Assembly: GCA_947628855.1 (NCBI GenBank)
Contig: CANRBM010000003.1
Span: forward strand, 1 to 54,965
DNA: 54,965 nt
Direction of reading: 5' to 3'
Source: an uncultured Clostridia bacterium
GTDB lineage: Bacteria > Bacillota > Clostridia > Christensenellales > CAG-917
This document shows positions 1-31,700 of the stretch, in pieces. The notes beneath the pieces were generated by a model, which saw only the letters and a list, made by a program, of their open reading frames with translations, did not search any database and was not told the origin of the DNA. The position numbers and the translations under genes are program-made. The stretch's first letter is position 1. Every line of letters starts with the position of its first letter.

Positions 1-495
1 GGCAAGGACTTCTTCTCTCTCAACGAGGAGGGAGTGCGCTTTGTGTTCGACCTCAATTTCCTCGGCACCTTCTTGACGACGCAGGTGTTTGCAAAGGATA
101 TGGTACAAAAGGGCGGCGGCATAGTGCTCAACATCTCGTCCATGAACGCATTTACTCCTCTCACAAAGATACCCGCGTACAGCGGCGCAAAGGCGGCGGT
201 GAGCAACTTTACGCAGTGGCTTTCCGTGCATCTCGCTCCCACGCATATAAGGGTGAATGCCATTGCTCCCGGGTTTTTCGTCACAAAGCAAAACAAGGAC
301 TTGCTTTATACGGCGGACGGGACTCCCACTCCGCGCACGGGCAAGATACTCGCCGCGACGCCTATGGGCAGATTCGGCAAAGTTGAGGAGCTTATGGGCG
401 CGGTCAAGCTTCTCCTAAACGACGATGAGGCGGCGTTTATCACGGGCGTGGTGTTGCCGATAGACGGCGGATTCAGCGCATACAGCGGGGTTTAA
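1..495 (+). CDS. SDR-family oxidoreductase, 3' part only (5' end lies left of the window); UxuB/KduD-like hexuronate-pathway dehydrogenase
   Basis: Frame 1 is open from nt 1 (track ORF 34..495 begins at an internal GTG). Classical SDR marks are present: 'NFLGTF', catalytic YxxxK 'YSGAKAAV', and C-terminal '[13 protein letters not shown]'. It lies directly upstream of eda and kdgK. Confidence 0.75.
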
Positions 496-531
496 ACCCT
501 CAAAATGAGCGCATAAAGTGCGGATATTGAT

Positions 532-1137
532 ATGAACGTAGAATTTTTGAAAAACAACAGGCTTGTCCCCGTGGCGGTTTTCAAGCGCATAGAGGACGTA
601 CTGCCTTCCATGAAGGCTTTGAGCAGGGGCGGCATAAACATCGCCGAGATAACTTTCCGTACTGATTGCGCGGAGGAGGCGGTGCGCCTTTCCGTGCGCG
701 AGTGCAAAGAAATGATCGTCGGCGCGGGCACGGTGCTGAATGCGGGACAGTGCGAGCGTGCGATAGCCGCGGGCGCGAAGTTTATCGTCTCCCCGGGGCT
801 GTCAAAGAGCGTGTCCGAGGTGTGCGAAAAGCACGGCGTGCCCTATATCCCGGGCGTAGCAACCGCAAGCGAGATAATGACCGCCCTCGACATGGGTTTG
901 ACGACTTTGAAATTTTTCCCCGCGGGCGCAATGGGAGGCGTAAAGACCCTCGGCGCGCTTGCCGCGGCTTTCCCCGGAGTCGGGTTTATGCCTACGGGCG
1001 GGGTTACGCTTGAAAACGCGGCGGAGTACCTCGAAAAGCCGTATGTCGTCGCGGTCGGCGGGAGCTGGCTCGTCAAGGGCGACGACGAAAACGTGGAAAA
1101 GCTCGCAAGAGAGGCAAAGGAGAGGTTGAAGATATGA
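532..1137 (+). CDS. eda: 2-dehydro-3-deoxyphosphogluconate (KDPG) / 4-hydroxy-2-oxoglutarate aldolase
   Basis: 201 aa. Aldolase-family motifs 'EITFRT', 'VGAGTVLN', 'FIVSPG', 'PGVATASEI', 'LKFFPA', 'PTGGV'. 4-nt ATGA overlap with the downstream kinase. Confidence 0.85.
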   Translation: MNVEFLKNNRLVPVAVFKRIEDVLPSMKALSRGGINIAEITFRTDCAEEAVRLSVRECKEMIVGAGTVLNAGQCERAIAAGAKFIVSPGLSKSVSEVCEKHGVPYIPGVATASEIMTALDMGLTTLKFFPAGAMGGVKTLGALAAAFPGVGFMPTGGVTLENAAEYLEKPYVVAVGGSWLVKGDDENVEKLAREAKERLKI

Positions 1138-2153
1138 AAGTCGTGACATTCGGCGAAATAATGTTGAGGCTCGCCCCCGAGGGCTACCTCAGGTTTTTGC
1201 AGGAGCCGCGCTTCGAGGCGACGTTCGGCGGCGGAGAGGCAAATGTGGCTGTCTCGCTTGCAAACTTCGGCGACGAGGCGGAGTTTGTGACAAAGCTCCC
1301 TCAAAACGATATCGCGGACGCGGCGATAAGACAGCTCAGAGGTTTTGGCGTGGGCGTAGACCATATCGCGCGCGGCGGAGACAGAATGGGGATATATTTC
1401 TGCGAAAAGGGCGCGTCCATGCGGCCGAGCAAGGTCATATACGACAGGGCGGGCTCGTCCATATCGGAGGCTGAGACGGGCGACTTCGATTGGGAGAGCA
1501 TATTCGAGGGCGCGGACATGTTCCACTTCACGGGCATAACGCCCGCGCTTGGGAGCAATGTCGCGGGGCTCACTTTGCAAGCGGCTAAGGCGGCGAAAAA
1601 GGCGGGAGTCAAGGTCAGCTGCGACCTCAACTACAGGAAAAAACTTTGGGACAGGCAGACCGCGCGAAAGACTATGACGGAGATTATGCCGTATGTGGAC
1701 ATCCTCATCGCAAACGAAGAGGACGCATACGACGTGTTTGGCATAAGCGCGGGCGAGAGCGACGTCGAGGGCGGCAAGTTGGATACGGCGGGCTATGAGA
1801 GCGTGGCGAGACAGCTTGCGGACAAATTCGGGCTGGAGGCGGTCGCGATAACGCTGAGGCAGAGCATAAGCGCAAACGACAACATCTGGGGCGCGATGAT
1901 ATATGCGGGCGGACAGGCGCACTTTTCAAAGAGCTATCCCGTGCGCATTGTGGACAGAGTTGGCGGCGGAGACAGCTTCGGCGCGGGACTGTTGCATGCG
2001 CTCGGACAGGGCAGGACATATGCGGACGCGCTTGAATTCGCAGTCGCGGCAAGCGCGCTCAAACACACCGTCGAGGGCGACTTCAACAGAGTGAGCGAGG
2101 CGGAAGTCGAGGCGCTTAAAAATGGCAACTCGAGCGGCAGAGTGCAAAGATAG
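1134..2153 (+). CDS. kdgK: 2-dehydro-3-deoxygluconokinase (PfkB family)
   Basis: 339 aa. N-terminus 'VVTFGEIMLRLAP', 'FGGGEANVAV'; C-terminal PfkB signature 'DRVGGGDSFGAGLL'. Coupled to eda by the ATGA overlap. Confidence 0.85.
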   Translation: MKVVTFGEIMLRLAPEGYLRFLQEPRFEATFGGGEANVAVSLANFGDEAEFVTKLPQNDIADAAIRQLRGFGVGVDHIARGGDRMGIYFCEKGASMRPSKVIYDRAGSSISEAETGDFDWESIFEGADMFHFTGITPALGSNVAGLTLQAAKAAKKAGVKVSCDLNYRKKLWDRQTARKTMTEIMPYVDILIANEEDAYDVFGISAGESDVEGGKLDTAGYESVARQLADKFGLEAVAITLRQSISANDNIWGAMIYAGGQAHFSKSYPVRIVDRVGGGDSFGAGLLHALGQGRTYADALEFAVAASALKHTVEGDFNRVSEAEVEALKNGNSSGRVQR

Positions 2154-2181
2154 TGCGCATTTTGCGTACATGGGGGATAAA

Positions 2182-3297
2182 ATGTTGAATTTTGCTGTCA
2201 TAGGCGTTGGAAGAATGGGGTCGAGGCACGCGCGCAATATCGCTCGCGGGCGGCTGTTTGGCGTAAGGCTCGCCGCCGTTTGCGACATCGACGGAGTGGC
2301 GCTTGCAAGGACAAAAAAGTATGCGCCGAAGGCAAAGCGCTATATGGATCTCGACATAATGCTGAAATGCGAACATCTTGACGGAGTCATCATCGCGACT
2401 CCGCATTACGCGCACGCCGAGATCGCAAAAAAGTGCATAGCTTATGGCGTGAATACACTCATAGAAAAACCTGCGTCGCCCACTGTCGAGATGGTGCAGG
2501 ATATCGCGGAATGCGCGAAGGACAGCGGCGTGAAGGTGGGAGTGAGCTACAATCAGCGCAGCAACCGAATGTACAAGAGGGCGAAAAAGCTGCTTGAGAG
2601 CGGCAAACTCGGCGAGATACAGCGCGTGGATTTCATCATCACCAATTGGTACCGCTCGCAGGCGTACTACGATCAAGGCGGTTGGAGAGCGAGCTATGTC
2701 GGCGAGGGCGGCGGATGCCTCATGAACCAGTGCATACATCAACTCGACATATTGCAGTGGCTGGTCGGCATGCCGAAGAGCGTTTATGCCGCCGCGCGCA
2801 CGGTGGACAGGCGCATTACCGTGGAAAACGACGTGACGGCTACGATGAGGTTCGATGGCTTTGACGGGGCGTTTGCGGCGTCCACGCATGAGCTTTCGGG
2901 CATAAACAGGCTTGAGATAGCTTGCGACAAGGGGCGGCTTGTGATAGGCCCGCTGAGCATGAAAGTGATAAGGCACAAGAGCCAAAAGGAAGTCAACGCC
3001 ACCACAAAGCACGGCTACGGGTTTGCGACGTCGTGGAGCTACCGCGTGGGCTACGGCTTTTTCAGACTGCTTGCGGACATATTCTTCGGGCAACAGCTGC
3101 GCTCGCTCAAAGCGTTCAGAAACGCGATAAACGGCAAGGGAGACATGCTCGCGGACATATCCGAGGGAGAGAGAGCTATGCAGATCATAAACGGCATATA
3201 TCTTTCCGCGGACAGCGGCGAGGAAGTTGCTCTCCCCATAAACAACGAAAAATACGCCGAATACCTCGAGAGGAAAAAGGCGGAAGAAAAGAAATAA
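2182..3297 (+). CDS. Gfo/Idh/MocA-family NAD(P)-dependent oxidoreductase (paralog 1)
   Basis: Rossmann N-terminus 'NFAVIGVGRMGSRHA' and 'LIEKPAS' (EKP motif). It shares a long block with the 4237..5394 paralog ('IITNWYRSQAYYDQGGWRASYVGEGGGCLMNQCIHQLD'). I prefer ATG 2182 (GGGGGA just upstream, no overlap with kdgK) over the track start 2122. Confidence 0.8.
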   Translation: MLNFAVIGVGRMGSRHARNIARGRLFGVRLAAVCDIDGVALARTKKYAPKAKRYMDLDIMLKCEHLDGVIIATPHYAHAEIAKKCIAYGVNTLIEKPASPTVEMVQDIAECAKDSGVKVGVSYNQRSNRMYKRAKKLLESGKLGEIQRVDFIITNWYRSQAYYDQGGWRASYVGEGGGCLMNQCIHQLDILQWLVGMPKSVYAAARTVDRRITVENDVTATMRFDGFDGAFAASTHELSGINRLEIACDKGRLVIGPLSMKVIRHKSQKEVNATTKHGYGFATSWSYRVGYGFFRLLADIFFGQQLRSLKAFRNAINGKGDMLADISEGERAMQIINGIYLSADSGEEVALPINNEKYAEYLERKKAEEKK

Positions 3298-3316
3298 ATT
3301 TTTGGAGGAGATATTT

Positions 3317-4240
3317 ATGGGCGTCACTATTTCAGGCTTTTACGATGAGGCTTCGGGCAAACTTGACGAGCAGATAGCGCTTATCAAGGAGCTTGGCGAG
3401 GGCTATCTTTGCCCCAGAAATATAGACGGCAAAAACATCGCGGACTTCACGCTTGACGAGTTCAAGGCGGAGGTCTATCCGCGGCTCAAGGCGGCGGGAG
3501 TGCGCTTTTCGTCGATAGGCTCGCCGATAGGAAAGATCGACATCGACGACGAAGAGGCGTATGAAAAACAGAAAGGGCAGCTCAAGGAGCTTGTCGGCAT
3601 TGCGTCGCTTATGGGATGCAAGTATATAAGGATATTCTCTTTCTATTACGGAAAGCAGAACCCCGACGCATGCGTGGACAAGGCTATAGAAAAACTGAGA
3701 GGCTTTTTGAAGATCGCCGAGGGCAGCGGAGTCTCGCTCATGCACGAAAACGAAAAGAAGATAGTCGGCGACGTCCCCTCGCGCGTCATAAAATTGCACG
3801 ACGCACTCAAGGACGAGGGACTCAAACTCTGCTTTGACGCGAGCAACTACATCCAGTGCGACGTGGACCCAAAGCAGGCGTTTGACAGTCTCGTGGACAG
3901 GGTGAGCTATTATCACATCAAGGATTGCAGCGAGTACGGCATAGAGGTTCCCGTCGGCGTGGGCAAGGGGTGCTATCCGTATATTATCGGCGAACTTGTA
4001 AAGAGGGGCTACGACGGATTTATGACGCTCGAACCGCACACATTCAAATACTCCATGATGAAACTGCCTGTCTATCTCTTCCCGTTTGCGCCGCTTTTCA
4101 TGAACAAATATTTCAAGGCGTTCAGACTCATAGACAAGGCTATGGGCGTTAAGGCGCTCAAGGGAGCGTCAAGAAAACAGGTCTTTTGTTGGCAATATCA
4201 AAATTTGAAAAAGCTTTTAAGCGAAGGAGGAGCAAAATGA
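3317..4240 (+). CDS. Sugar phosphate isomerase/epimerase (xylose-isomerase-like TIM barrel) 1
   Basis: 307 aa from ATG 3317 (GGAGGAG RBS at 3305-3311). TIM-barrel family motifs 'YIRIFSF', 'LMHENE', 'FDASNY', 'YHIKD', 'MTLEPH'. The stop overlaps the next gene's ATG (ATGA at 4237-4240). Confidence 0.75.
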   Translation: MGVTISGFYDEASGKLDEQIALIKELGEGYLCPRNIDGKNIADFTLDEFKAEVYPRLKAAGVRFSSIGSPIGKIDIDDEEAYEKQKGQLKELVGIASLMGCKYIRIFSFYYGKQNPDACVDKAIEKLRGFLKIAEGSGVSLMHENEKKIVGDVPSRVIKLHDALKDEGLKLCFDASNYIQCDVDPKQAFDSLVDRVSYYHIKDCSEYGIEVPVGVGKGCYPYIIGELVKRGYDGFMTLEPHTFKYSMMKLPVYLFPFAPLFMNKYFKAFRLIDKAMGVKALKGASRKQVFCWQYQNLKKLLSEGGAK

Positions 4241-5394
4241 ACGGAAAAGTCGTAAGATACGGCATTGTCGGCGTCGGAAAGCAGGGTACCTTCTACACGA
4301 AGATATTCACAAAGCTCAAAGGCCTGGTGAAGGGCGCCAAGCTCACCGCGGTCTGCGATATCGCAGAGGACAGGCGGCAGTATGCGGAGCAAAACCTCAA
4401 GGGCGTCAAAGTCTTTTCGGACTACAAAGAGATGTTCAAGTCCGGACTTATCGACGTCGTCATGGTGGAGACGCCTCACTATTTCCACCCCCAGATAGCA
4501 ATTGACGCTATGAAGGCGGGGCTAAACGTGCTGTGCGACAAGCCCGCGGGCGTCTATTTGAAACAGGTCCGCGAGATGATGGCGGAGGCGGACAAGCATC
4601 CCGATCTGCTTTTCGGAATGATGTTCAATCAGCGCACAAATCCCCTCTACATCAGGGCAAAGCAAATTATCGATAGCGGGCAGCTGGGCAAACTCACGCG
4701 CATAGTGTGGATAATCACAAATTGGTATCGCCCGCGCGCGTACTACGCTCAAGGCGGTTGGAGAGGCACCTGGTGGGGCGAAGGCGGCGGCGTCTTGCTC
4801 AATCAATGCCCGCACCAGCTCGACCTGTTCACATGGCTTGCGGGGCTCCCCGTGTCCGTGACCGCCACGACGTCCACAGTAGGCAGGGATATAAGCGTTG
4901 AAAACGACGTCACGGCGTATTGCAAATTTGCAAACGGCGCGACAGGCGTGTTTATCACATCTACGCACGACGCTCCCGGCACTAACCGCCTCGAGATAAC
5001 GGGCGAGGGCGGCAAGATAGTCATAGAGCACGGCAAGCTCACCTTCACGAAGAATGCGGAGCTCGAACCCGTATTCTCCGAGCATAACGAGGTGTTCATG
5101 GGCAAGCCTAAGACGAAGAAGAGCACATATAGGGGCATCGGGCACTATCTCAGACTCAAAAAATATCCGCCTCAGCACATCGGCATAATCAAGAATTACA
5201 CGGACTACCTGCTTGGCAAGACGGACAAATTCATCGCCCCCGGCAAGGAAGGCATCACGGGACTCACATTCTCAAACGCTATACACCTTGCGGGTTGGAC
5301 GGGACAGGAAGTGCACATACCTCTTGACGACGACTTCTACTTCGAGCAACTCCAAAAACGCATAGAGGAAGAAAAAGCAAACGAGAAAAAGTAA
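4237..5394 (+). CDS. Gfo/Idh/MocA-family NAD(P)-dependent oxidoreductase (paralog 2)
   Basis: N-terminus 'RYGIVGVGKQGTFY', 'LCDKPAG', 'WIITNWYRPRAYYAQGGWRGTWWGEGGGVLLNQCPHQLD'. AGGAGG RBS before ATG 4237. Lys/Glu-rich C-terminal tail like paralog 1. Confidence 0.8.
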   Translation: MNGKVVRYGIVGVGKQGTFYTKIFTKLKGLVKGAKLTAVCDIAEDRRQYAEQNLKGVKVFSDYKEMFKSGLIDVVMVETPHYFHPQIAIDAMKAGLNVLCDKPAGVYLKQVREMMAEADKHPDLLFGMMFNQRTNPLYIRAKQIIDSGQLGKLTRIVWIITNWYRPRAYYAQGGWRGTWWGEGGGVLLNQCPHQLDLFTWLAGLPVSVTATTSTVGRDISVENDVTAYCKFANGATGVFITSTHDAPGTNRLEITGEGGKIVIEHGKLTFTKNAELEPVFSEHNEVFMGKPKTKKSTYRGIGHYLRLKKYPPQHIGIIKNYTDYLLGKTDKFIAPGKEGITGLTFSNAIHLAGWTGQEVHIPLDDDFYFEQLQKRIEEEKANEKK

Positions 5395-5509
5395 GATCAT
5401 TCAAACGTAGTGAGTTTTGTAAAAAAATCACATCGTAACGAGAAAATACGAATGTACAAAGGCGAAATTTAAAAGATAATCAAAAATAAACCCTTAAGGG
5501 AGGTAAATT

Positions 5510-7117
5510 ATGAGCAACGAAAATTCAGCCGCAGAGACGAGCTACATAGCAAGAACGAGCGGCCTCAAGGGTAAGGACTATGTCGGTTATGCGCTCGGCG
5601 ACACCGCATGCTGTCTTGTGTTCGGTCTGGTGACTTCGCTTTTGCAGAAGTTCTACACGGACATCTTCGCGCTAAGCCCGCTGTTCATCATGTTGATGTT
5701 CATAGGCGCGCGCGTATGGGACGCGGTAAACGACCCGATCATGGGCAGGATATGCGACAGCATCAAGCCCAACAAGTGGGGCAGATATCGTCCCTGGTTT
5801 TTGTACGCGTCATTCCCGCTTGTTCTCTCGTCCATATTGATGTTCGTCAAGTGGCCGGGGATAGGCGAGGGTAGCGTAGGCATGTGCGTTTATGCGACGA
5901 TAACTTATGTCATGTTCGGCATGAGCTACACTATGTTGCAGATCCCTTACGGCTCGCTCGCGTCCGTCGTCACGACAGACGAGAAGGAGAGGACAAAGCT
6001 CAGCGTGTTCCGCTCTATCGGCGCAGGCCTCGGCAGCGTTCCCGTCATTTTGATCGCGTCATTTGCGTATAAAAACAGACTGGACGAGGCAGGCAACAAA
6101 ATTATGGGCGAAAACGGCAGACCTTTGCAGGACATGCAATATCTGCCCGTCATAATCGGCGTAGTTGCGCTGTCTCTCATCTGCTTTGTAATGTTGATGC
6201 TTGCGTTCAAGTTCAACAAGGAGAGAGTGGTCGCGACGGACGTCGGCGGCAAGCGTCCCAAGGGAGAGACGTTGGGAATAATCAAAAACCTCTTCAAAAA
6301 CAGGGCTTTCCTCGCGGTCAGCGTAGCGGGCATGTTGCTGCTTGCGGGACAGATGTTCACACAGAGCTTTTATCTGTATCTGTTTGACGACTATTTCGGA
6401 GCGAACTGGATGAATACAGTGTCTACGGTCTGCACATATGCGCCTATGGCGATACTCATGTTCCTCACGCCAAAAATGGTGCGCAAGTTCGGCAAGAAAG
6501 AGATCTGCGGCGTAGGCATGATCCTCGCGGCAGTGGCAAACCTCGCTATGTTTGCGATGCGTGGCATTAAACCTAGTGTATTGATGTATCTCTTCCTCGT
6601 ATTCTGCTTCATCAGCGGATGCGGCATGACTTTCTTCGTGTTGCAAGTGTGGTCAATGGCTACGGACGCCATAGACGACATAGAGGTCAAGACGGGCAGA
6701 AGGGACGACGGAACGGCATATTCATTCTTCATGTTCTTCCGCAAGCTCGGACAAGTGCTCGCGGCAGTCGCGGTTAACGGCGCATTGCTCGGCATGCATT
6801 ATGATACGAGCAAGGGGGCTAAACAAACTTTGGCAAACCTGCATATAATGTACGATATGGCGACGATAATCCCCGCGGTGCTCTTTGGCATCATGGCGAT
6901 AGTGTTGCTCGTATGGTATCCGCTCTCCCGCAAGAAGGTCGCGGAGCTGCAAGTGCTCAAGGAGCAGAGGCTTAAAGAGGCATATGAGAGCAACGCTATC
7001 AACCTCACAAACGATACTGCGCCCGCAGAGACTGTAGAGGCTCCCGCCGAGGCGGAAACAGTCGAGACTCTCGAGACTGAAGAGAAGTCCGACGGAGCTG
7101 ACGGCGACGTAGAATGA
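5510..7117 (+). CDS. Glycoside-pentoside-hexuronide (GPH):cation symporter family transporter (MelB/UidB-like MFS)
   Basis: 535 aa, polytopic. GPH signatures 'GARVWDAVNDPIMG' and 'WGRYRPWFLY'. GGGAGG RBS. Acidic non-membrane C-terminal tail. Confidence 0.8.
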   Translation: MSNENSAAETSYIARTSGLKGKDYVGYALGDTACCLVFGLVTSLLQKFYTDIFALSPLFIMLMFIGARVWDAVNDPIMGRICDSIKPNKWGRYRPWFLYASFPLVLSSILMFVKWPGIGEGSVGMCVYATITYVMFGMSYTMLQIPYGSLASVVTTDEKERTKLSVFRSIGAGLGSVPVILIASFAYKNRLDEAGNKIMGENGRPLQDMQYLPVIIGVVALSLICFVMLMLAFKFNKERVVATDVGGKRPKGETLGIIKNLFKNRAFLAVSVAGMLLLAGQMFTQSFYLYLFDDYFGANWMNTVSTVCTYAPMAILMFLTPKMVRKFGKKEICGVGMILAAVANLAMFAMRGIKPSVLMYLFLVFCFISGCGMTFFVLQVWSMATDAIDDIEVKTGRRDDGTAYSFFMFFRKLGQVLAAVAVNGALLGMHYDTSKGAKQTLANLHIMYDMATIIPAVLFGIMAIVLLVWYPLSRKKVAELQVLKEQRLKEAYESNAINLTNDTAPAETVEAPAEAETVETLETEEKSDGADGDVE

Positions 7118-7130
7118 CGCTGTTTTACGG

Positions 7131-7165
7131 CTGTCCGAGGCAATAGTTTCGGACAGTCGTATTTT
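7131..7165 (+). terminator. Hairpin with weak T-tract after the transporter gene (possible partial terminator)
   Basis: CTGTCCGA (7131-7138) / TCGGACAG (7149-7156), 8-bp perfect stem followed by TCGTATTTT. Confidence 0.4.
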
Positions 7166-7227
7166 CAAATTTAAAGCGAAAAAATTAAAGTATTTCCAAT
7201 CGATAAGATATTAGATTCGGAGGGCAT

Positions 7228-7992
7228 ATGAAATACGGAGTGCAAATGTTCTCTCTTCGCGGCATGTTGAAGGACGAGGAGGGTTATGACAAGACTTTCG
7301 CCGCCGTCAAGGATATGGGCGCGGAGGTCGTGCAGCTGTCCGCAACGGGCGGAGGGAGCATATCTCCCGAATGCGTAAAGCGGGTCAGCGAGAAGTACGA
7401 CTTGCCCGTGTGCGTCACGCACGACCCTTGGGACAGGCTTACGACCGACCTCGCCGCGCTCGTCGCGGAGCACAAAATTTTTGGATGCAACAATCTGGGG
7501 CTCGGCATGATGCCAAAAAGTTTCCGCACGGGAAACATGGCAGACGTCGTGAGTTTTGCCTCGAAAATGAACGAGATCGCCCTCAAACTCAAGGACGAGG
7601 GAATGACTCTTTCCTATCACAATCACTGGTTTGAATTTGACGAGATAGACGGCAAAAAGATCTACGACGTGCTCATCGAGGAAGCGCCAGACATCCTCTT
7701 CATCCCCGACACATATTGGATGCGGTTCAAGGGGCAGGACATAGAGGGCTACCTCAAAAAACTTGCGGGTAGGATAGACACCTTGCACCTCAAGGATTAC
7801 AAAAAGACGTGCGGGCTGCCGCTGTTCAGAGCGATAGGCAAGGGCGATCTTGACTTTGAGCATATACTTTATGCGGCGAAGGACGCGGGCGTGAAAAATT
7901 GCGTAGTGGAGCTGGACGTGTCGCCCAACCCCATGAAGAGCATGCGTTTTTCCATGCAAAAGGTGCTCGAGCTCAAGAGCAAAGTAAAATAA
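7228..7992 (+). CDS. Sugar phosphate isomerase/epimerase (xylose-isomerase-like TIM barrel) 2
   Basis: 254 aa. GGAGGG RBS. Motifs 'LSYHNHWFEF', 'TLHLKD', 'CVVELD' are typical of this TIM-barrel family. Confidence 0.7.
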   Translation: MKYGVQMFSLRGMLKDEEGYDKTFAAVKDMGAEVVQLSATGGGSISPECVKRVSEKYDLPVCVTHDPWDRLTTDLAALVAEHKIFGCNNLGLGMMPKSFRTGNMADVVSFASKMNEIALKLKDEGMTLSYHNHWFEFDEIDGKKIYDVLIEEAPDILFIPDTYWMRFKGQDIEGYLKKLAGRIDTLHLKDYKKTCGLPLFRAIGKGDLDFEHILYAAKDAGVKNCVVELDVSPNPMKSMRFSMQKVLELKSKVK

Positions 7993-8023
7993 AACGTCCG
8001 CTTTTTGATTAGCTGACGGTCGA

Positions 8024-9250
8024 ATGAATATGGAAGAGAAAATTTTCAAGGCGGGTCCCTTCCTCGGAAGAGAGGAGGGCGGTATCGCCGTATTCAAAGG
8101 CATAAGATACGCCTCGGCGAAACGTTTTGAGCCCGCCGAGCTTTGCGAGCTGCCGAGTATGGAGACAGATGCAAGCCGTTTCGGCGCGTGCTGTCCTCAA
8201 AAGCGCGCCTACGTTGACGAGGGCAGTTTGCAAAACAAGCAGTTTTATTACAACGAATTTCGCAAGGGCGTGAAGTTCTCCTACGACGAGGACTGCCTTT
8301 TTCTCAACGTCTACGCGCCGAAAGAGGGGAAGAATATGCCCGTCATCGTCTTTGTGCACGGCGGCAGCTTTGTCTCGGGCAGCGCGGACGAGAAACAGTT
8401 TTATGGCGCCGCGTATGCGAAAAAGGGCGTGATATTTGTGACGATAAACTATCGGCTCGGCGTTTTTGGCAACTTCGCGGCGGAGGGCAGGGCGCAAAAT
8501 CTTTGCGTCAGCGACGTGCTTGCCGCGCTCAGTTGGGTGCGCAAAAACATTGGCATATTCGGCAGCGACGGCGACAATATCACGCTTATGGGACAGAGTG
8601 CGGGCGCGATGATCGCTCAGACCGTGCTCTCCTTCGACCTCGCGAAAGGAGTAAAACGCGGGATAATGCTGAGCGGCGGAGGGGACAGAAAATTGCTTTT
8701 GCCCCTAAAAAAGCCGAATTTCCGCTTTTGGCAGGGCGTTATGCGCAAGGCGGGCGCGGACAGCGTCGAAGAGTTTGCGGCTATGGACGCGAAGCGCGTT
8801 TTCGAGGCGTATTCAAGCTCGAGCGGCATAGGCGCGCTGTTTGCGACAGCCCCCGTCATAGACGGAAAACTCATAGCAAAGGCGCGGCATGATTCGCCAA
8901 AGGTCGAGTGTATATTCGGCACAGTGCAAAAAGACCTGCTCCCGCCCGTGCTAAGGCATATGAAGAGGGCAATGGCAAAGCGTATGGCGAAGGCGGGAGT
9001 AAAAGCGTATCTCTACGAATTTTCGCACAGCCTGCCCGAGGACGGCGGGACATTCCACAGCGCCGACCTTTGGTATGCCATAGGCTCGCTTGGAGCGAGC
9101 GACAGACCCATGAAAAAGCGCGACTTCGATATAGCGGACGAGATGACCTCCCGCTTTGCCGCCTTCGCAAAAGGGGACAGCCCAAATTTTGACGGCCACG
9201 AAGTCTGGAGACCCTACTTGACCCGCTCCGACGAGCTCAGGATCCGCTGA
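8024..9250 (+). CDS. Type-B carboxylesterase family protein
   Basis: 408 aa. 'FKGIRYA', 'CLFLNVYAP', oxyanion-hole 'VFVHGGSF', nucleophile elbow 'MGQSAGAM' (GxSxG). Confidence 0.8.
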   Translation: MNMEEKIFKAGPFLGREEGGIAVFKGIRYASAKRFEPAELCELPSMETDASRFGACCPQKRAYVDEGSLQNKQFYYNEFRKGVKFSYDEDCLFLNVYAPKEGKNMPVIVFVHGGSFVSGSADEKQFYGAAYAKKGVIFVTINYRLGVFGNFAAEGRAQNLCVSDVLAALSWVRKNIGIFGSDGDNITLMGQSAGAMIAQTVLSFDLAKGVKRGIMLSGGGDRKLLLPLKKPNFRFWQGVMRKAGADSVEEFAAMDAKRVFEAYSSSSGIGALFATAPVIDGKLIAKARHDSPKVECIFGTVQKDLLPPVLRHMKRAMAKRMAKAGVKAYLYEFSHSLPEDGGTFHSADLWYAIGSLGASDRPMKKRDFDIADEMTSRFAAFAKGDSPNFDGHEVWRPYLTRSDELRIR

Positions 9251-9337
9251 AAATCGCACACAGGTGCGCAAAATAGACTTAAAAGGCTTGTTCCGCGGGG
9301 TCGCTGGGGCAGAGGCGTCCGTCCGTGTATAAGAATG

Positions 9338-9613
9338 CTCGGATAAGGGGATTCCTCGACTTTTTACCCCACAAAAACATTTCATATTTTTGTGGGGACC
9401 CCGTATCAATACCCCGCAAAATCACTGCGTAATTTCGTGGGGACCCTTTATTGCTCGGAATGACAATATATATGACATGTCATGTTGAGCGAAGTCGAAA
9501 CATCCCCATGATAAAGGGCATATCTTGGAACTTGGGGATTCCTCGACTGCGCTGCGCTACGCTCGGAATGACATTCTATATTCTGTCATGTTGAGCGAAG
9601 TCGAAACATTCCC
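9338..9613. repeat. Cluster of REP-like palindromic intergenic repeats
   Basis: Unit X 'GCTCGGAATGACA...TGTCATGTTGAGCGAAGTCGAAACAT(C/T)CCC' at 9453-9507 and 9561-9613. Unit Y 'GGGGATTCCTCGAC' at 9347-9360 and 9534-9547. Perfect 11-bp hairpin CCCCACAAAAA/TTTTTGTGGGG at 9367-9397, with a degenerate copy at 9412-9442. Confidence 0.8.
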
Positions 9614-9650
9614 GTTTTAAGTAAAAACCTCACACAATACGCACGTTAAT

Positions 9651-9797
9651 ATCAAAGCTCTCACGCAGGAGTTAGTACCATACACATGATCCAAGATGCG
9701 CGAACTAGGCGACTGAAAGTGCCGATGTTCGCGCTTTTTAGCTTGGGGTGCAGGGGACGAAGTCCCTTGCCGAGGTGTGGAGCAGCGCTCCACAAAT
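9651..9797 (+). repeat. Copy A of a ~150-nt two-copy element containing an intrinsic-terminator-like hairpin
   Basis: Aligns by eye with 18431-18596: 'AAGCTCTCACGCAGGAGTT..ATACCATACACA', the terminator stem, and 'TTTTTAGCTTGGGGTG(C)AGGGGACGAAGTCCCTTGCCGAGG'. Stem GCGCGAAC 9698-9705 / GTTCGCGC 9727-9734 followed by T5. Second hairpin GTGGAGC-AGC-GCTCCAC. Confidence 0.75.
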
Positions 9798-9800
9798 AAA

Positions 9801-10676
9801 TTAAAATTCGTTCAATGCAGCTTCAAAATCACTTGGGGGAGATTTGCGGGTAAGGGGTGTGAAGCATGCGGCGAGCGCGGTAGCGGCTGTGTCGAGCGAG
9901 AAACAATGTCTGAGCATATGCGGCAGGGCGAGGATGAGGTTTGACGAGCAGACGACGGGCGAGTAGAGCGCGAGCGCGCTGTCGCCGAAATACGCCTCGA
10001 AACCGTCATTGTCCGCGGCGGACCATACGATGTCGCCGAAAAGGCGGGAGCTTAGGAGCAGATGGTCGTCGAGGCGGATCTTTTCGCCGTCAAGGAGAAG
10101 AGTTCGTGAATTTTTGTCGAAATTTGGCAAAAAGTCGCATATATCGCACATTTTGAGGGGGACGGAAGGATAATCCTCATTTATGTCGGACACTATTTTG
10201 CGCCAGAGGAGAGAGGTGACAAGCCGTCCGCCCCTGTCAAGCAAAATGACGCCTTTGTCCTCCTGCATGGCAAATTCGTAGGCGACGCGGGCGGTGCGCT
10301 CTATTTCGAGCTCCGAAAAATATTCCACGTCGTAGGCGGCGCGTCCGAACTTAGCGTTGTTGTCGTAGCCGCTCCTGTCGCCGTATATGCCTGACGTCGC
10401 GTTTGTCACGAGTTTTATAGCTCCCGCGCGCAGGGAAGTGTGAAGTTCCAGTTCCTTTTGAAGCGCCGCTGCCTTGCCGATGTCATTTGCATACGCGCCG
10501 ACAAGTACGGCTCCCGCGGCTTTTGCGGCGTCCATAGCTTGAAGTTTGCCGCATACCGCGGGCAGGACTTCGAGCTCTATGGATAGGGAAAATCGCTCAT
10601 TCAATTTGCCAAGCGCAAGTCGGACGAGCTTGAGCGCAGGATCCCCGTTTTGAAAAAACGCGACAATCTTATTCAT
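9801..10676 (-). CDS. Divergent, short isocitrate/isopropylmalate-dehydrogenase-family-like protein
   Basis: 291 aa. Blocks reminiscent of the IDH/IMDH family ('ERTARVAYEFA', 'LVTSLLWRKIV', 'LFGDIVWSAAD'), but it is short and the canonical substrate motif looks degenerate. The ATG overlaps the stop of the ClC gene by 8 nt. Confidence 0.45.
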   Translation of the reverse strand: MNKIVAFFQNGDPALKLVRLALGKLNERFSLSIELEVLPAVCGKLQAMDAAKAAGAVLVGAYANDIGKAAALQKELELHTSLRAGAIKLVTNATSGIYGDRSGYDNNAKFGRAAYDVEYFSELEIERTARVAYEFAMQEDKGVILLDRGGRLVTSLLWRKIVSDINEDYPSVPLKMCDICDFLPNFDKNSRTLLLDGEKIRLDDHLLLSSRLFGDIVWSAADNDGFEAYFGDSALALYSPVVCSSNLILALPHMLRHCFSLDTAATALAACFTPLTRKSPPSDFEAALNEF

Positions 10677-13043: not shown

Positions 13044-13865
13044 TTATTGCGCATCTTTAAAGCCCATGTAGGTGCTGAATCCCAGCATATATGCTGCCAT
13101 TGCGATGGACAAATCCTTCGGCACTATATTCATTGCGACGGCCATTGCTTTTAATTCCTCCATGACCGTGTCATGCGGCATTATGGTATTGTCAAGTTCA
13201 TTTACTGCTTTTTCAATTACAAAGGGAAGCACCATGCACATTTCATAAAAAGCGTTACGTTGTCCTGTTACAATGGAATAAAACTGATCGACACTTACTC
13301 TTCGGATTTGCTTATGCCCAACTCTATTTCTGTCTATGGTAGTTTCCCACTTGATATTTTGAGAATGTTGGGCGATGATTTCGACCAAAAAACATGCACA
13401 ATCGTCATCATGCAAAATTTGATTCTGCATTTTTATGTAAGTTTTACTACTAGAAGATGAGTTCATGGTATTATGTTTGTTTTTCATTTCAACATAAATC
13501 CTATGAACTATTCCTGCCTCAGGAATTTCAATTCCGTTTTCATTGGTGTATATGACATCCCAACCGCCTTCTTCACCATTTTGGGGGACATGGCAATTGG
13601 CGATATATTGAAATACTCTTTGATGAAAATACCCTATATCATTGTTGTTTGATTTATCACGCTGTCTAAATATTTCGTTGCTTACAATTTCTTCCCAAGA
13701 AGAATGATAAACCGTCTTGTCAAAGATTAATTTAATTGGGTCGATTAAATTTTTGTTGAATCTCTTTAAATCAAAAGATTTCAGTTTTTCGCCATATTTC
13801 CTAATCGTTTCTTTGACATGATTAGAAAAATCTTCTTCGCTTATAAAAGATAAATTCCAGCTCAT
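13044..13865 (-). CDS. Type II restriction endonuclease, Eco47II-family-like
   Basis: 273 aa. It overlaps the methyltransferase stop by 4 nt (ATGA). Remembered Eco47II-family blocks: 'LSFISEEDF..HVK', 'LIDPIKLIFD', 'RQRDKSNNNDIGYFHQ', 'VEMKNKHNTMNSSSSSKTY', 'CFLVEIIA..SQNI.W'. The family assignment is from memory, not a search. Confidence 0.65.
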   Translation of the reverse strand: MSWNLSFISEEDFSNHVKETIRKYGEKLKSFDLKRFNKNLIDPIKLIFDKTVYHSSWEEIVSNEIFRQRDKSNNNDIGYFHQRVFQYIANCHVPQNGEEGGWDVIYTNENGIEIPEAGIVHRIYVEMKNKHNTMNSSSSSKTYIKMQNQILHDDDCACFLVEIIAQHSQNIKWETTIDRNRVGHKQIRRVSVDQFYSIVTGQRNAFYEMCMVLPFVIEKAVNELDNTIMPHDTVMEELKAMAVAMNIVPKDLSIAMAAYMLGFSTYMGFKDAQ

Positions 13866-14887
13866 ATGCCCTCCAATGCTTCTTTGATTTTGCTACCAAT
13901 TTCAAAAGCCAACTTTACGGGAACCGCATTTCCTACTTGTCGATATTTCTCAGATAGAGTACCCCAAAAGCCCCACTCATCGGGGAATGTTTGTATCCGA
14001 GCATTTTCCCTATATGAAAAAGGTCGAACTTCCAATGGATGGCATCTATCCGTTTGCTTCATTCCAGGATTTGTTAACACCGTTAAAGAAGGCTCATCAA
14101 GACCTATTCGCCTAAGAATACCAGTTCTGCCACCGCCCATATTCCAACAAGTTTTCATATACTCTTTGGCAATTTGGGGGTCAATATCGCGCCAATATCC
14201 ACCTGGTGGAACCAGGGCAAAAACGCATGCCTTGCTTGAAGAATATCTTGCGCATTCATCACTCGACGGGTTTATATCAAGTTTTACATCACGCATGACG
14301 GGCTTATAGTCGTGCTTTTGAGGAAATGTAAATTTGCATTTGCTTATCAAATCTTCGCGTATTCCTATAGTTATTAAGCGTTCCCTTTTTTGTGGAACAC
14401 CATAATCCCACGCATTAAGAATCTCATGAGAGGTTATGTATCCTTGTTCTTCAAATATTCCTAATATTGTTTGATATGTTTTACCGTGGTCATGAGTGAG
14501 TAAACCGCGGACATTTTCAAATAAAAACATTCTCGGTTGTAACTGTTCCAAAAAAGTAGCATAATGGTAAAACATTGTTCCACGAACATCTTGTAATCCA
14601 AGCCGTTTACCTGCATAACTAAAAGATTGGCAAGGTGGACCGCCAGACAATAAGTCTAATTCGCCTTTCTTTATATGGAATTCGGATTCAAGGTCACGCT
14701 GAGTTGTTAAAGCGATGTCTTCACATAAAACATTCCATTGCGGGCGATTCATAATCAAAGTATTGGCGGCGCTTCTGTCGTACTCCACCAAACCTATATG
14801 TTTAAAACCTGCTTGCTCTAATCCAAGCGCCAATCCGCCTGCTCCTGCAAAGAGTTCTATACTTTTTAAAACGTTTTTTTTTCCCAT
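13862..14887 (-). CDS. dcm: DNA (cytosine-5)-methyltransferase
   Basis: 341 aa. C5-MTase motifs I 'IELFAGAGGLALGL', IV 'GGPPCQSFSYAGKR', VI 'ENVRGL', VIII 'QKRERL', X 'GNAVPVKLA'. Confidence 0.9.
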   Translation of the reverse strand: MGKKNVLKSIELFAGAGGLALGLEQAGFKHIGLVEYDRSAANTLIMNRPQWNVLCEDIALTTQRDLESEFHIKKGELDLLSGGPPCQSFSYAGKRLGLQDVRGTMFYHYATFLEQLQPRMFLFENVRGLLTHDHGKTYQTILGIFEEQGYITSHEILNAWDYGVPQKRERLITIGIREDLISKCKFTFPQKHDYKPVMRDVKLDINPSSDECARYSSSKACVFALVPPGGYWRDIDPQIAKEYMKTCWNMGGGRTGILRRIGLDEPSLTVLTNPGMKQTDRCHPLEVRPFSYRENARIQTFPDEWGFWGTLSEKYRQVGNAVPVKLAFEIGSKIKEALEGI

Positions 14888-28739: not shown

Positions 28740-31700
28740 ATGTCTAATAAAAGGACTTTTACAATTGTTCTCGCGGCATTGATGGTCGTTGTGCTTTTGG
28801 TATGCGTGCTTGCAGCGTGCGACCCCAAGCATAAAGATCCCGTGCCGCCGGGACCCGAAGGAGGAACATACTATTTCGACGCGGGAGCGGAGGAATATAC
28901 CGTGTCCCTTGAAGCGGACAATAAGTTTACGCTCAACATTTTAGGCGAGACTCACAGCGGATGGTATTCGTTGTCGGGTAGCGCCCTTTTGCTTAATTTT
29001 GACGACGACTCGGAGCAATTGTCCGCGCAACTGACGAACAATTATAACACTCTCGAATTCACCTACAACGGACAGGCGTACACATTCTTGCGCAAGACCG
29101 AATTTACGGTGACATTCGATACGGGGGGGGGTACCCAGATCGATCCCGTCACTGTCTTGAACGGCAAGACCATCTCGAAACCGGATGCGCCCTCAAAGGA
29201 CGGCAACTTTGTTTTCGAGGGCTGGTATTCGGACAGCAAATTCGAATTTAAATACGATTTCGACGCTCCCGTCACGGGCGATATCACTCTTCACGCGAAC
29301 TACGTGTCCTCCATTAGGGAGCCTATCGAATTCACCGTAAAATTCGCTGGAGATGGCGGATTTGAACCTATTCAGACGATAAAAGGCGTCGCTTACGGCT
29401 TGCCCGAACCCAAGAAGGATGGGGACAAGTTCGTGGGCTGGTGGGTGAGCTCTTCAAACGAACAAGACAAGCTCTCCTATCAATATGAGGGGCAAAAACT
29501 CACCGAAAATACGACGTTCTTCCCTGTGTGGCAGTCTCAGCTTGTCGGCGGAATGGAAGTTTCCGTCAATGCGGAAGGCATATTCTGGACGGGCAAAAAC
29601 GACGTCACGATCAGCATAGTATCTCCCGCCGGCGTGACTTCCGAGACCATAACAGGGCGCGAAAACGAGTATCTATTCGATTCGAACAACTACAAACTGT
29701 CTCAAAACGGCGAGTATAAGTTTACCGTTAAGGCGGCGGGCTCCGACGACGCTACCGTGCGTTATTTCGTCAACGGAAGGTTGTCAAGGGTCTCATGTTT
29801 TGAGGTCGAAAACGGTTCCAACTCTTTAAAATTCAACCATGTCGCAAACGCGCAGTCCTACAACGTCAGCATTGTGACTAAGGACGGCGTAAAGCAGGAG
29901 ACTCTGGACGCGGCGACGGTGCAAAACAACACAATGGTGTTTGATTTTTCCGCATACGACATCCCTGCGGACGGCTATGTATTCACCGTAGAAGCGGTCG
30001 GCAAAGGGTATCTCAATTCAACGTCCGAATCGTTCAACTACAATCGTTTCCTCGACAAGGTAGCGCAGCCCGTCTTTGACGAAGCTACACAATCTTTCTC
30101 GTGGCAAGCAGTCGAACACGCAAATCGTTACGTCGTCAAATTGAACGGCGAGCAAGTTTTGGACGGACCGTCGGTCACTTTCGACCTTAAAGATAAGGAT
30201 CCGGGCACGTACTCAATTGAAGTACAGCCTTTCGGATTTGGCTACAACGCACCCGAAGCGACGACGAAAAATATTGACAAGCAAAAACTTGCCGCTCCTT
30301 CAAATCTCAAACCGAGCACGGACGGCAAATCCATAGTTTGGGACCACGTCAAAGACAGCGTAGGCTATATCGTCTACAAAGGCGATGTAAAGCTTGCGGA
30401 GCCTGCAACAGAGTCATTTGTATTCGACGGCTCGCTTTTGAGCGGCGGAGCAGTAGATATTTACGTTGTTGCAAAGAGCAGCGATCCTAAACTCAACTCG
30501 CCGAAATCCAACGCGATGAACGTCAGCAACCGCGTTGAAAATATTACATACAACAAGGGCGTCATCAGTTGGAGCTTTGTGCTTGGCATAAGCAAATATT
30601 TTGTCAAGATCAACGACGGGCAGGAGCTTGAAGTCAACGGCACTTCCACGAATGCGTTGCCCCTTGTCGCAAAGACGAACGTTATTTCGGTACGTCCCGA
30701 AAACGGCGAATCCAACACCGCGACGGTTGAGGCGTTTGAGATCTCATTCGATCTCGGCTATGAAGGCGCGTCGCACCCCTCGCAATTCAAGACGACGGGC
30801 GAAAGTTTGCACATAACAAATCCCGCGTCGGAGCGTTACGGTTACGACTTTGAATATTGGGTAGACGAAAACGGCACTCAGATAACGGACGGCACATTCA
30901 ACGGGATTTCGGACACGGTGTACAAAGCAAAGTGGGATCCGCATGAGTTTATGATCACGTTCGACCTCACCGATCAAGCCATCGACGAGGAGATTAAAGA
31001 CACAAAATACAACAATCAAAAGGTGACGTTTGACGACGGCAACTTTACTCTTCCCGCGCCTACTACCGCATCAAAAGACGGCAAGCACGCTTTTGAAGGT
31101 TGGTATATGAGTTTGGGAGGTAGTTCCGCTGCTCAAAAGATAACCGACTATACGGGCAAAGCGACCGCTCCTTTTGCGTACAATCCGACGGACGGAAAAG
31201 TCACGTTCTTTGCAAAATGGGTGGAGATATTCAAATTTGAATCGGTCGAAGGCGGCTGGCGCGTACAGAAAAACGGCAACTACATCGACTATTTGTCCAA
31301 CGTGAAGATCCCAGCCAAGCAGGACGATCAATGGGTCGTGGCGGTTTCCGATTTTTCAAACTGCACAAAGCTTGTCACTCTCGACATCCCGTCGAGCGTC
31401 ACGCAAATCAACTTTGGCGATCAAGGCGTATCCTTTGCGGGCGATACCGCGCTGACGGCAATCAACGTGTATCCTGCGGAAGGTTATAAAGGCACGGTGA
31501 AATATGCTTCGAAAGACGGCGTCTTGCTTGAAAACGACGCGCAGGGCAATGCGGTCAAGCTGATGTATTGTCCTCTCGGCAAGTTGAGCCGCCTCACGGA
31601 ATTCACCATTCCCACAGGCGTCAAGACTGTTGCGGCGGGCGCGTTTTACAGCGAGACATTTCAATACAATGCGTTCCATTTGCAGACCATCAACTTCCCT

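Follow-up and report, generated by a model that had tools for sequence, protein, structure and literature searches.

A putative oxidative glucuronide-cleavage cassette in a glucuronate operon of an uncultured Clostridia bacterium

A six-gene block without a glycoside hydrolase was analyzed in the window, which is the whole stretch of 54,965 nucleotides of contig CANRBM010000003.1 (assembly GCA_947628855.1) from an uncultured Clostridia bacterium of the order Christensenellales. It encodes two Gfo/Idh/MocA oxidoreductases (Gfo1 and Gfo2), two xylose-isomerase-like TIM barrels (TIM1 and TIM2), a GPH-family symporter and a carboxylesterase. We consider it likely, with a probability of about 0.8, that this cassette is the glucuronide-cleaving front end of a glucuronide-to-pyruvate operon and the same enzyme system as P2B11, a gene cluster from the human gut. 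This reading is based on homology, on catalytic residues that are kept, on the operon context and on the replacement of the cassette by a beta-glucuronidase in sibling species. As judged from sequence, the locus is most likely a rearranged, transporter- and pathway-linked example of the P2B11-type system, whose route was first shown in 2024.

How drugs, oestrogens and bilirubin are recycled is controlled by gut bacteria that remove glucuronic acid. To our knowledge, gut glucuronide deconjugation is currently surveyed and targeted only via GH2 beta-glucuronidases. The genes of the block are as follows.

2182..3297, + strand: Gfo1, Gfo/Idh/MocA paralogue of the glucuronide-3-dehydrogenase family (E 1.7e-63, 219 bits to PDB 8TDI)
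3317..4240 (open reading frame from 3302), + strand: TIM1, xylose-isomerase-like TIM barrel (Pfam PF01261)
4237..5394, + strand: Gfo2, probable glucuronide 3-dehydrogenase (E 2.6e-99, 336 bits to PDB 8TDI)
5510..7117, + strand: GPH-family cation symporter, probable glucuronide importer (TIGR00792, 261 bits, above cut-off)
7228..7992, + strand: TIM2, homologue of AtOGE/AL1-type metal-dependent 3-keto-glycoside 1,2-lyases (Pfam PF01261; PDB 8BVK, E 3.1e-19)
8024..9250, + strand: type-B carboxylesterase, short (408 aa), last gene of the block (Pfam COesterase, 224 bits)

The dehydrogenases

Gfo2 was compared with all sequences in the Protein Data Bank (PDB), and the top match was 8TDI, deposited as "P2B11 glucuronide-3-dehydrogenase", with about 50% identity over the full length. 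The second-best match reached 117 bits. Inositol dehydrogenases scored 108 bits or less, DgpA 66 bits and 6A3F, which we take to be levoglucosan dehydrogenase, 57 bits. 8TDI is Oxido1 of the P2B11 fosmid cluster (Nasseri et al., bioRxiv 10.1101/2024.03.25.586180; Nature 2024). This cluster has four genes in the order Iso1-Oxido1-Oxido2-Iso2 and was obtained on a human-gut fosmid from a Gram-positive gut bacterium of unknown identity. Its enzymes cleave both alpha- and beta-glucuronides via a 3-keto intermediate; Mn2+/Co2+ raises their activity, whereas added NAD(H) makes no difference. Of the four proteins, Oxido1 is indispensable, the two Iso proteins raise the rate and the effect of Oxido2 is minor (bioRxiv 10.1101/2024.03.25.586180).

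The active site of Oxido1 is formed by Asn147, Trp179, Arg181, Tyr185, Asn205 and His209 (bioRxiv 10.1101/2024.03.25.586180; the PDB chain numbering of 8TDI is offset by 10 from that of the paper). All six residues are identical in Gfo2 (N131, W163, R165, Y169, N189 and H193), and Gfo1 likewise keeps the whole set. Five of them are invariant and N131 is nearly so in a family alignment of 10 sequences with 44-89% identity (A1). No other protein of the operon was as well conserved as Gfo2 among four genomes of the genus, with 86-91% identity compared to 63-72% for kdgK, and its third-codon divergence was about equal to that of the neighbouring genes. High protein conservation together with ordinary third-codon divergence suggests that purifying selection acts more strongly on Gfo2 than on the neighbouring genes. 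A recent transfer of Gfo2-GPH was considered as the cause of the high conservation of both and was dropped, since the third-codon divergence resembles that of the neighbouring genes.

Given these matches, Gfo2 is probably a glucuronide 3-dehydrogenase, the key enzyme of the cassette and the counterpart of P2B11-Oxido1. A preliminary description of this DNA had proposed a Gfo-based oxidative step of glycoside cleavage, and the close homology of Gfo2 to a characterized enzyme of that kind supports it. Gfo1 would be accessory, either as a 3-keto-glucuronate reductase or as a second dehydrogenase.

The TIM barrels

The best PDB relatives of TIM2 were AtOGE (8BVK, E 3.1e-19), followed by 8TCT, 8TCS and 8TCD (1e-14 to 1e-17); the latter three are taken here as the AL1/BT1 lyases. 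AtOGE is the 3-keto-O-glycoside beta-eliminase of Agrobacterium, with the metal ligands His132, Asp163, His189 and Glu233 and the catalytic residue His134 (PMC10628242). These correspond to H131, D161, H187, E228 and H133 of TIM2. In a 27-sequence alignment that reaches down to 27% identity, H131, H133, D161, W164, H187 and E228 of TIM2 are invariant. By its sequence, TIM2 certainly belongs to the 3-keto-glycoside eliminase family. The preliminary suggestion that TIM-barrel "isomerases" take part in an oxidative glycoside cleavage is backed by the homology of TIM2 to proven eliminases with the catalytic residues kept.

TIM1 belongs to a separate family, and its relationship to TIM2 was visible at the profile level only. 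A single-sequence PDB search with TIM1 gave marginal matches only, and a 19-sequence profile found Art22 (1e-11) and the 3-dehydroshikimate dehydratase AsbF (1.4e-10), both weak; a literature search on Art22 found nothing relevant. In the TIM1 alignment (A3), H148, E149, D179, H205 and E244 are invariant (numbering from the open reading frame start at 3302), and the usual Glu-Asp-His-Glu metal site among them is intact. The AlphaFold2 model of TIM1 had a predicted local distance difference test score (pLDDT) of 94.5. When this model was searched with Foldseek, UlaE, ketose 3-epimerases, the AtHYD glycal hydratase, IolI and YcjR were all found at about 1e-10 to 1e-11.

In a 201-genome sample of the order, in which adjacency was read by eye from two tables, 37 of the 57 TIM1 homologues had a Gfo2-family gene no more than about 4 kb away. 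This rose to 16 of the 17 closest homologues, and the sole exception was on a short contig. One species of the genus has only TIM1-Gfo2-esterase after kdgK. The constancy of TIM1 beside Gfo2 and the existence of this reduced arrangement suggest that TIM1 and Gfo2 form a core pair. From this context, TIM1 would be a 3-keto-glucuronide lyase and/or a glycal hydratase.

The upstream glucuronate operon

Three further genes precede the cassette on the same strand, as was noted in the preliminary description, and coordinates and domain models agree with it.

1..495, + strand: SDR-type D-mannonate oxidoreductase (UxuB-like), C-terminal 164 aa (NCBIfam PRK08277, 272.9 bits despite truncation by the contig end)
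532..1137, + strand: eda, KDPG/KHG aldolase (TIGR01182, 236 bits, above cut-off)
1134..2153, + strand: kdgK, 2-dehydro-3-deoxygluconokinase of the PfkB family (Pfam PfkB; kinase half of NCBIfam NF041633, 557.8 bits)

The window opens inside the SDR gene. Another contig of the same assembly (C42) ends with a ROK regulator, uxaC, uxuA and the N-terminus of an SDR; its uxaC scored 529 bits (cut-off 387) and its uxuA 473 bits (cut-off 191). In a near-identical genome, G007, whose cassette proteins are 95-100% identical to those of the window, ROK-uxaC-uxuA-uxuB-eda-kdgK-Gfo1-TIM1-Gfo2-GPH-TIM2-esterase is one contiguous block. The Ashwell enzymes UxaC, UxuB, UxuA, KdgK and Eda are therefore all present and contiguous with the cassette, the contiguity being read in G007. 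The assembly break falls inside the uxuB-like SDR gene (window 1-495 and C42, L103:3978-4286), and about 12 codons are missing relative to G007.

Neither altronate dehydratase (UxaA) nor a mannitol-dehydrogenase-type UxaB was found in the 95.8%-complete genome. It appears, therefore, that the hexuronate pathway of this genome is limited to the glucuronate branch, which makes glucuronate the likely product of the cassette. The earlier proposal that the sugar part enters the pathway through 2-dehydro-3-deoxygluconate (KDG) and its 6-phosphate (KDPG) is strengthened by uxaC, uxuA and uxuB, which join eda and kdgK. The UxaC in the clade of the window is the full 464-aa form. Many other species of the genus have a short UxaC of about 400 aa without profile positions ~190-276 (e.g. 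G049:C2:33512-34687 and G012:C32:1437-2612).

Replacement by a beta-glucuronidase in sibling species

The genus was compared across 52 genomes; since these are related to one another, the counts should not be read as independent. Gfo2 orthologues, at 83-99% identity, were found in 24 of the 52, each of which has UxaC as well. A full Gfo1 paralogue was present in only seven of the 24, a scarcity that parallels the minor role of Oxido2 in P2B11. UxaC without an intact Gfo2 was seen in two genomes of low completeness, and in G010, one of this pair, a Gfo2 fragment of 82% identity is present.

The same uxaC-uxuA-uxuB-eda-kdgK operon was found in the remaining four UxaC-positive genomes (G003, G050, G051 and G066). 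In these, kdgK is followed directly by a GH2 protein of 754-769 aa and a different GPH carrier, which is only 26-28% identical to that of the window. The GH2 proteins matched PDB 6MVG, 6MVH, 7KGZ and 8GET, deposited as beta-glucuronidase or beta-galactosidase, at E ~1e-243, and scored 537-541 bits with the NCBIfam LacZ4 beta-glucuronidase model. Entries 6MVF, 6MVG and 6MVH presumably represent the FMN-binding class of gut beta-glucuronidases. Two alternatives thus occupy the slot after kdgK, a classical glucuronidase or the oxidative cassette, each with a carrier of its own. Among arguments from outside biochemistry, this swap speaks most strongly for a release of glucuronate from glucuronides by the cassette; the preliminary description had named a glucuronide as one possible substrate. 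A glucuronide is accordingly our inferred substrate.

The cut-off of the NCBIfam model for E. coli-type beta-glucuronidase was reached by none of the 52 genomes, including that of the window, whose GH2 proteins are one of the LacZ type and one divergent protein of 596 aa. One of the four swap genomes, G066, has a Gfo1-like fragment at a contig start and no Gfo2 orthologue. Another member of the genus, G041, has both the oxidative cassette and a 760-aa homologue of the FMN-type beta-glucuronidases at separate loci (L111 = G041:C4:10432-12066; G041:C8:24107-25252), suggesting that the two routes are not strictly exclusive.

The carrier and the esterase

The best specific model for the GPH symporter of the window was the glucuronide transporter PRK09848, at 200 bits, and the symporter is a probable glucuronide importer. 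The carboxylesterase has the HGG oxyanion and GQSAG nucleophile motifs. It stands at the end of the block in loci of the genus and in none of 80 Gfo2-family loci outside it, so it is a genus-specific last gene and not a core part of the cassette. An action on esterified or acyl glucuronides is speculation on our part.

Distribution outside the genus

Beyond the genus, a pattern scan picked up no fewer than 590 loci of the Gfo2 family. Their hosts are Christensenellaceae and other Clostridia known as metagenome-assembled genomes from the gut, Paenibacillus and a few Enterobacteria. Neighbourhoods were counted in the best 80 of these loci from named genomes. A TIM1- or TIM2-like neighbour was seen in 56 of the 80 and both in 16, while uxaC, uxuA or uxuB was nearby in 26. 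In neighbouring Christensenellales families (L023-L026, L030 and L036; ~3400-6900 each), an extra Gfo paralogue (31-34% identical) directly follows uxuB, and about 1 kb of unassigned coding sequence separates it from the Gfo1-TIM1-Gfo2 triad. No description of the distribution of this cluster type, of 3-keto-glucuronide or of glucuronide 3-dehydrogenase was found in the limited literature collection searched.

Proposed pathway

In the proposed pathway, the GPH symporter would import the intact glucuronide. Cytoplasmic Gfo2, with tightly bound NAD, would then oxidize the C3 hydroxyl to give the 3-keto-glucuronide. Metal-dependent TIM2 and/or TIM1 would remove H2, so that the aglycone is expelled by beta-elimination, and the TIM barrels would hydrate the resulting 2-hydroxy-3-keto-glycal to 3-keto-glucuronate. 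This could be reduced to D-glucuronate by the enzyme-bound NADH of Gfo2 or by Gfo1. The net result would be a redox-neutral "hydrolysis" that is independent of the anomer, and UxaC, UxuB, UxuA, KdgK and Eda would convert glucuronate to pyruvate and glyceraldehyde-3-phosphate. An oxidize/eliminate/hydrate/reduce cassette feeding the KDG pathway had already been suggested for this DNA; the homology of Gfo2 to P2B11 and of TIM2 to eliminases, together with uxaC, uxuA and uxuB upstream, argues for it.

Comparison with known systems

P2B11 and the cassette of the window have much in common. Both have two paralogous Gfo/Idh/MocA proteins and two xylose-isomerase-like TIM barrels, neither has a DUF1080 domain or signal peptides, and both come from a Gram-positive gut source. 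Oxido1 and Gfo2 are about 50% identical with an identical active-site set. The gene order differs, being Gfo-TIM-Gfo-GPH-TIM in the window and Iso-Oxido-Oxido-Iso in P2B11. The cassette also has a GPH transporter and a ROK regulator, neither of which is reported nearby in the P2B11 paper, and unlike P2B11 it is joined to a full uxaC-uxuA-uxuB-eda-kdgK operon and an esterase. The P2B11 cluster itself was sought among 92 loci with three short motifs of 8TDI, and none was closer than about 65% in the motifs.

TIM2 shares with AtOGE and AL1/BT1 the fold, the His-Asp-His-Glu metal site and the catalytic HxH histidine. It is only about 25-30% identical to them, and it probably acts on a uronide, not on a glucoside. 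The partner oxidase is a Gfo protein in the window and in AL1/BT1, whereas it is a flavoenzyme in Agrobacterium. The Bacteroides/Alistipes BT2156-2160 (AL/BT) system was rejected as the family of the window cassette. The Gfo pair scored 65 and 40 bits with the BT_2158 glycoside 3-dehydrogenase family (NF058561, cut-off 750) and 49 and 34 bits with the BT_2159 family (cut-off 650). No DUF1080 domain was found by Pfam among the nine proteins, and no N-terminal signal extension or signal peptide was seen on Gfo1 or Gfo2, while the AL/BT enzymes are periplasmic.

The preliminary description had likened the cassette to the levoglucosan (Lgd), DgpA/B/C and CarA/B/C systems. The analogy stood for the mechanism, since LgdA/B1/B2/C and DgpA/B/C follow the same oxidize/eliminate/hydrate/reduce logic with the same two superfamilies. 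It failed for the families: the subfamilies differ, and scores were far under the cut-offs. The Gfo pair reached 61 and 69 bits with the levoglucosan dehydrogenase model LevoglcsnDh (NF052479, cut-off 650), and DgpA structures gave 48-69 bits compared to 219 (Gfo1) and 336 (Gfo2) for 8TDI. No DgpB/C or CarB/C chain was among the PDB sequence matches of TIM1 or TIM2. The nearest relative is P2B11, which that description did not name.

The GH2 FMN-binding gut beta-glucuronidases (6MVF/6MVG/6MVH, 7KGZ) apparently do the same physiological job and take the same operon slot in siblings. They have an unrelated fold, however, and are beta-anomer specific enzymes acting by retaining Koshland hydrolysis, in contrast to the NAD-dependent oxidation and elimination expected of the cassette.

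Weighing of the glucuronide assignment

Several points weigh against the proposed reading. The identity of about 50% between Gfo2 and 8TDI does not fix substrate specificity, and P2B11 itself also slowly cleaves 6-phospho-, 6-sulfo- and sulfoquinovosyl glucosides (bioRxiv 10.1101/2024.03.25.586180). TIM1, TIM2 and Gfo1 were likened to Iso1, Iso2 and Oxido2 at the level of the protein family only. TIM1 is without an informative solved relative, with epimerases, a glycal hydratase and IolI ranked about equally by Foldseek. The 200 bits of the GPH symporter are under the PRK09848 glucuronide-transporter equivalog cut-off of 528. Finally, the divergent 596-aa GH2 is encoded elsewhere in the genome; it also occurs in members of the genus without the cassette.

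One possible explanation is that the chemistry is as proposed and the natural substrates are other 6-anionic or uronic glycosides, such as plant aldouronates, esterified or acyl glucuronides or sulfoquinovosides, with the esterase acting first and the classical host and drug beta-glucuronides not the main substrates. P2B11 accepts alpha and beta anomers and several 6-anionic sugars, the block ends in the carboxylesterase throughout the genus, and Gfo2 homologues are frequent in Paenibacillus too, which degrades plant polymers; all of this would fit. However, the operon has only the glucuronate branch, a gut-type beta-glucuronidase fills the slot in sibling species and the esterase, found in 0 of 80 loci outside the genus, is not core. 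We therefore regard this explanation as unlikely.

Another explanation is a 3-keto epimerization shunt like that of E. coli YcjQRS, in which one Gfo protein oxidizes C3, TIM1 epimerizes the adjacent carbon and the other Gfo protein reduces the product, with no glycosidic cleavage. Such a shunt would yield the gluco form from some other uronide or uronate. The Gfo-TIM-Gfo order does resemble YcjS-YcjR, and YcjR (6WN6) is among the structural matches of TIM1, but that match is no better than those of dozens of other TIM barrels. In addition, Gfo1 is missing from most species with the cassette, TIM2 carries an eliminase active site and the nearest characterized relative cleaves glycosides. This makes a shunt very unlikely.

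An inositol/cyclitol or keto-sugar pathway of the IolG/IolE/IolI type, lying beside hexuronate genes by chance, is most improbable: although the top NCBIfam match by name was IolG for both Gfo proteins and IolE for TIM2, the scores were 125 and 100 bits for IolG (TIGR04380, cut-off 355) and 19 and 39 bits for IolE (TIGR04379, cut-off 290), and no inositol dehydrogenase structure matched Gfo2 with more than about a third of the strength of 8TDI. The clustering with inositol-catabolism families that the preliminary description had named as evidence against its proposal was, by these scores, not found.

Significance

If cleavage of glucuronides is the function of the cassette, these bacteria are predicted to use glucuronides for growth and to deconjugate them with no beta-glucuronidase at all. 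The locus would give the oxidative route of 2024 a physiological context, with importer, regulator and all downstream enzymes encoded together in a single operon. New here are the within-genus swap with a beta-glucuronidase, the co-occurrence counts, the TIM1-Gfo2 core and the absence of the altronate branch.

A more far-reaching version can be put forward tentatively, at somewhat less than an even chance. In it, the Gfo2-TIM1 core with TIM2, Gfo1 and the GPH carrier would be a full substitute for beta-glucuronidase, interchangeable at one slot and present in about a quarter of the sampled genomes of the order. Being indifferent to the anomer, missed by GH2-based censuses of gut glucuronidases and presumably insensitive to GH2-directed inhibitors, it would reactivate the glucuronides of drugs, hormones and bile pigments by a route that has so far gone uncounted. 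TIM1 would be a new family of 3-keto-uronide lyases/hydratases.

Gene calls and remainder of the window

Nine co-directional genes on the + strand fill positions 1-9250, and domains were called with Pfam and NCBIfam profiles on the nine proteins. The preliminary description proved accurate on the layout, as all genes lie where it had placed them in the order Gfo-TIM-Gfo, GPH, TIM and carboxylesterase. It was also right that no glycoside hydrolase is present, since Pfam found no such domain in the nine-gene block. Gfo1 starts at ATG 2182, preceded by GGGGGA. The true start of TIM1 is likely ATG 3317, 8 nt past GGAGGA, rather than TTG 3302. The reported ATGA coupling of the TIM1 stop with the Gfo2 start was seen at 4237-4240, with AAGGAGG upstream. 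Gfo1 and Gfo2 are paralogues, as had been claimed (38% identity, E 1e-74), and both have Lys/Glu-rich C-terminal tails. The gene order is kept across several species of the genus, suggesting that the arrangement is not due to chance. A promoter/terminator scan of 1-9900 found sites no more numerous than in shuffled sequence.

Beyond the esterase are unrelated genes, including a ClC channel and a restriction-modification pair. The pair, an Eco47II-family restriction endonuclease and a C5-cytosine methyltransferase, occupies 13044-14887 in a low-GC stretch (0.44-0.45 compared to ~0.53 elsewhere). A 291-aa open reading frame at 9801-10676 overlaps the end of the ClC channel gene and matches isopropylmalate/isocitrate dehydrogenase only in part (Pfam, residues 85-175), perhaps as a domain that has decayed or been put to another use. 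Further along, a single + strand open reading frame of 3624 aa extends over 28740-39614.

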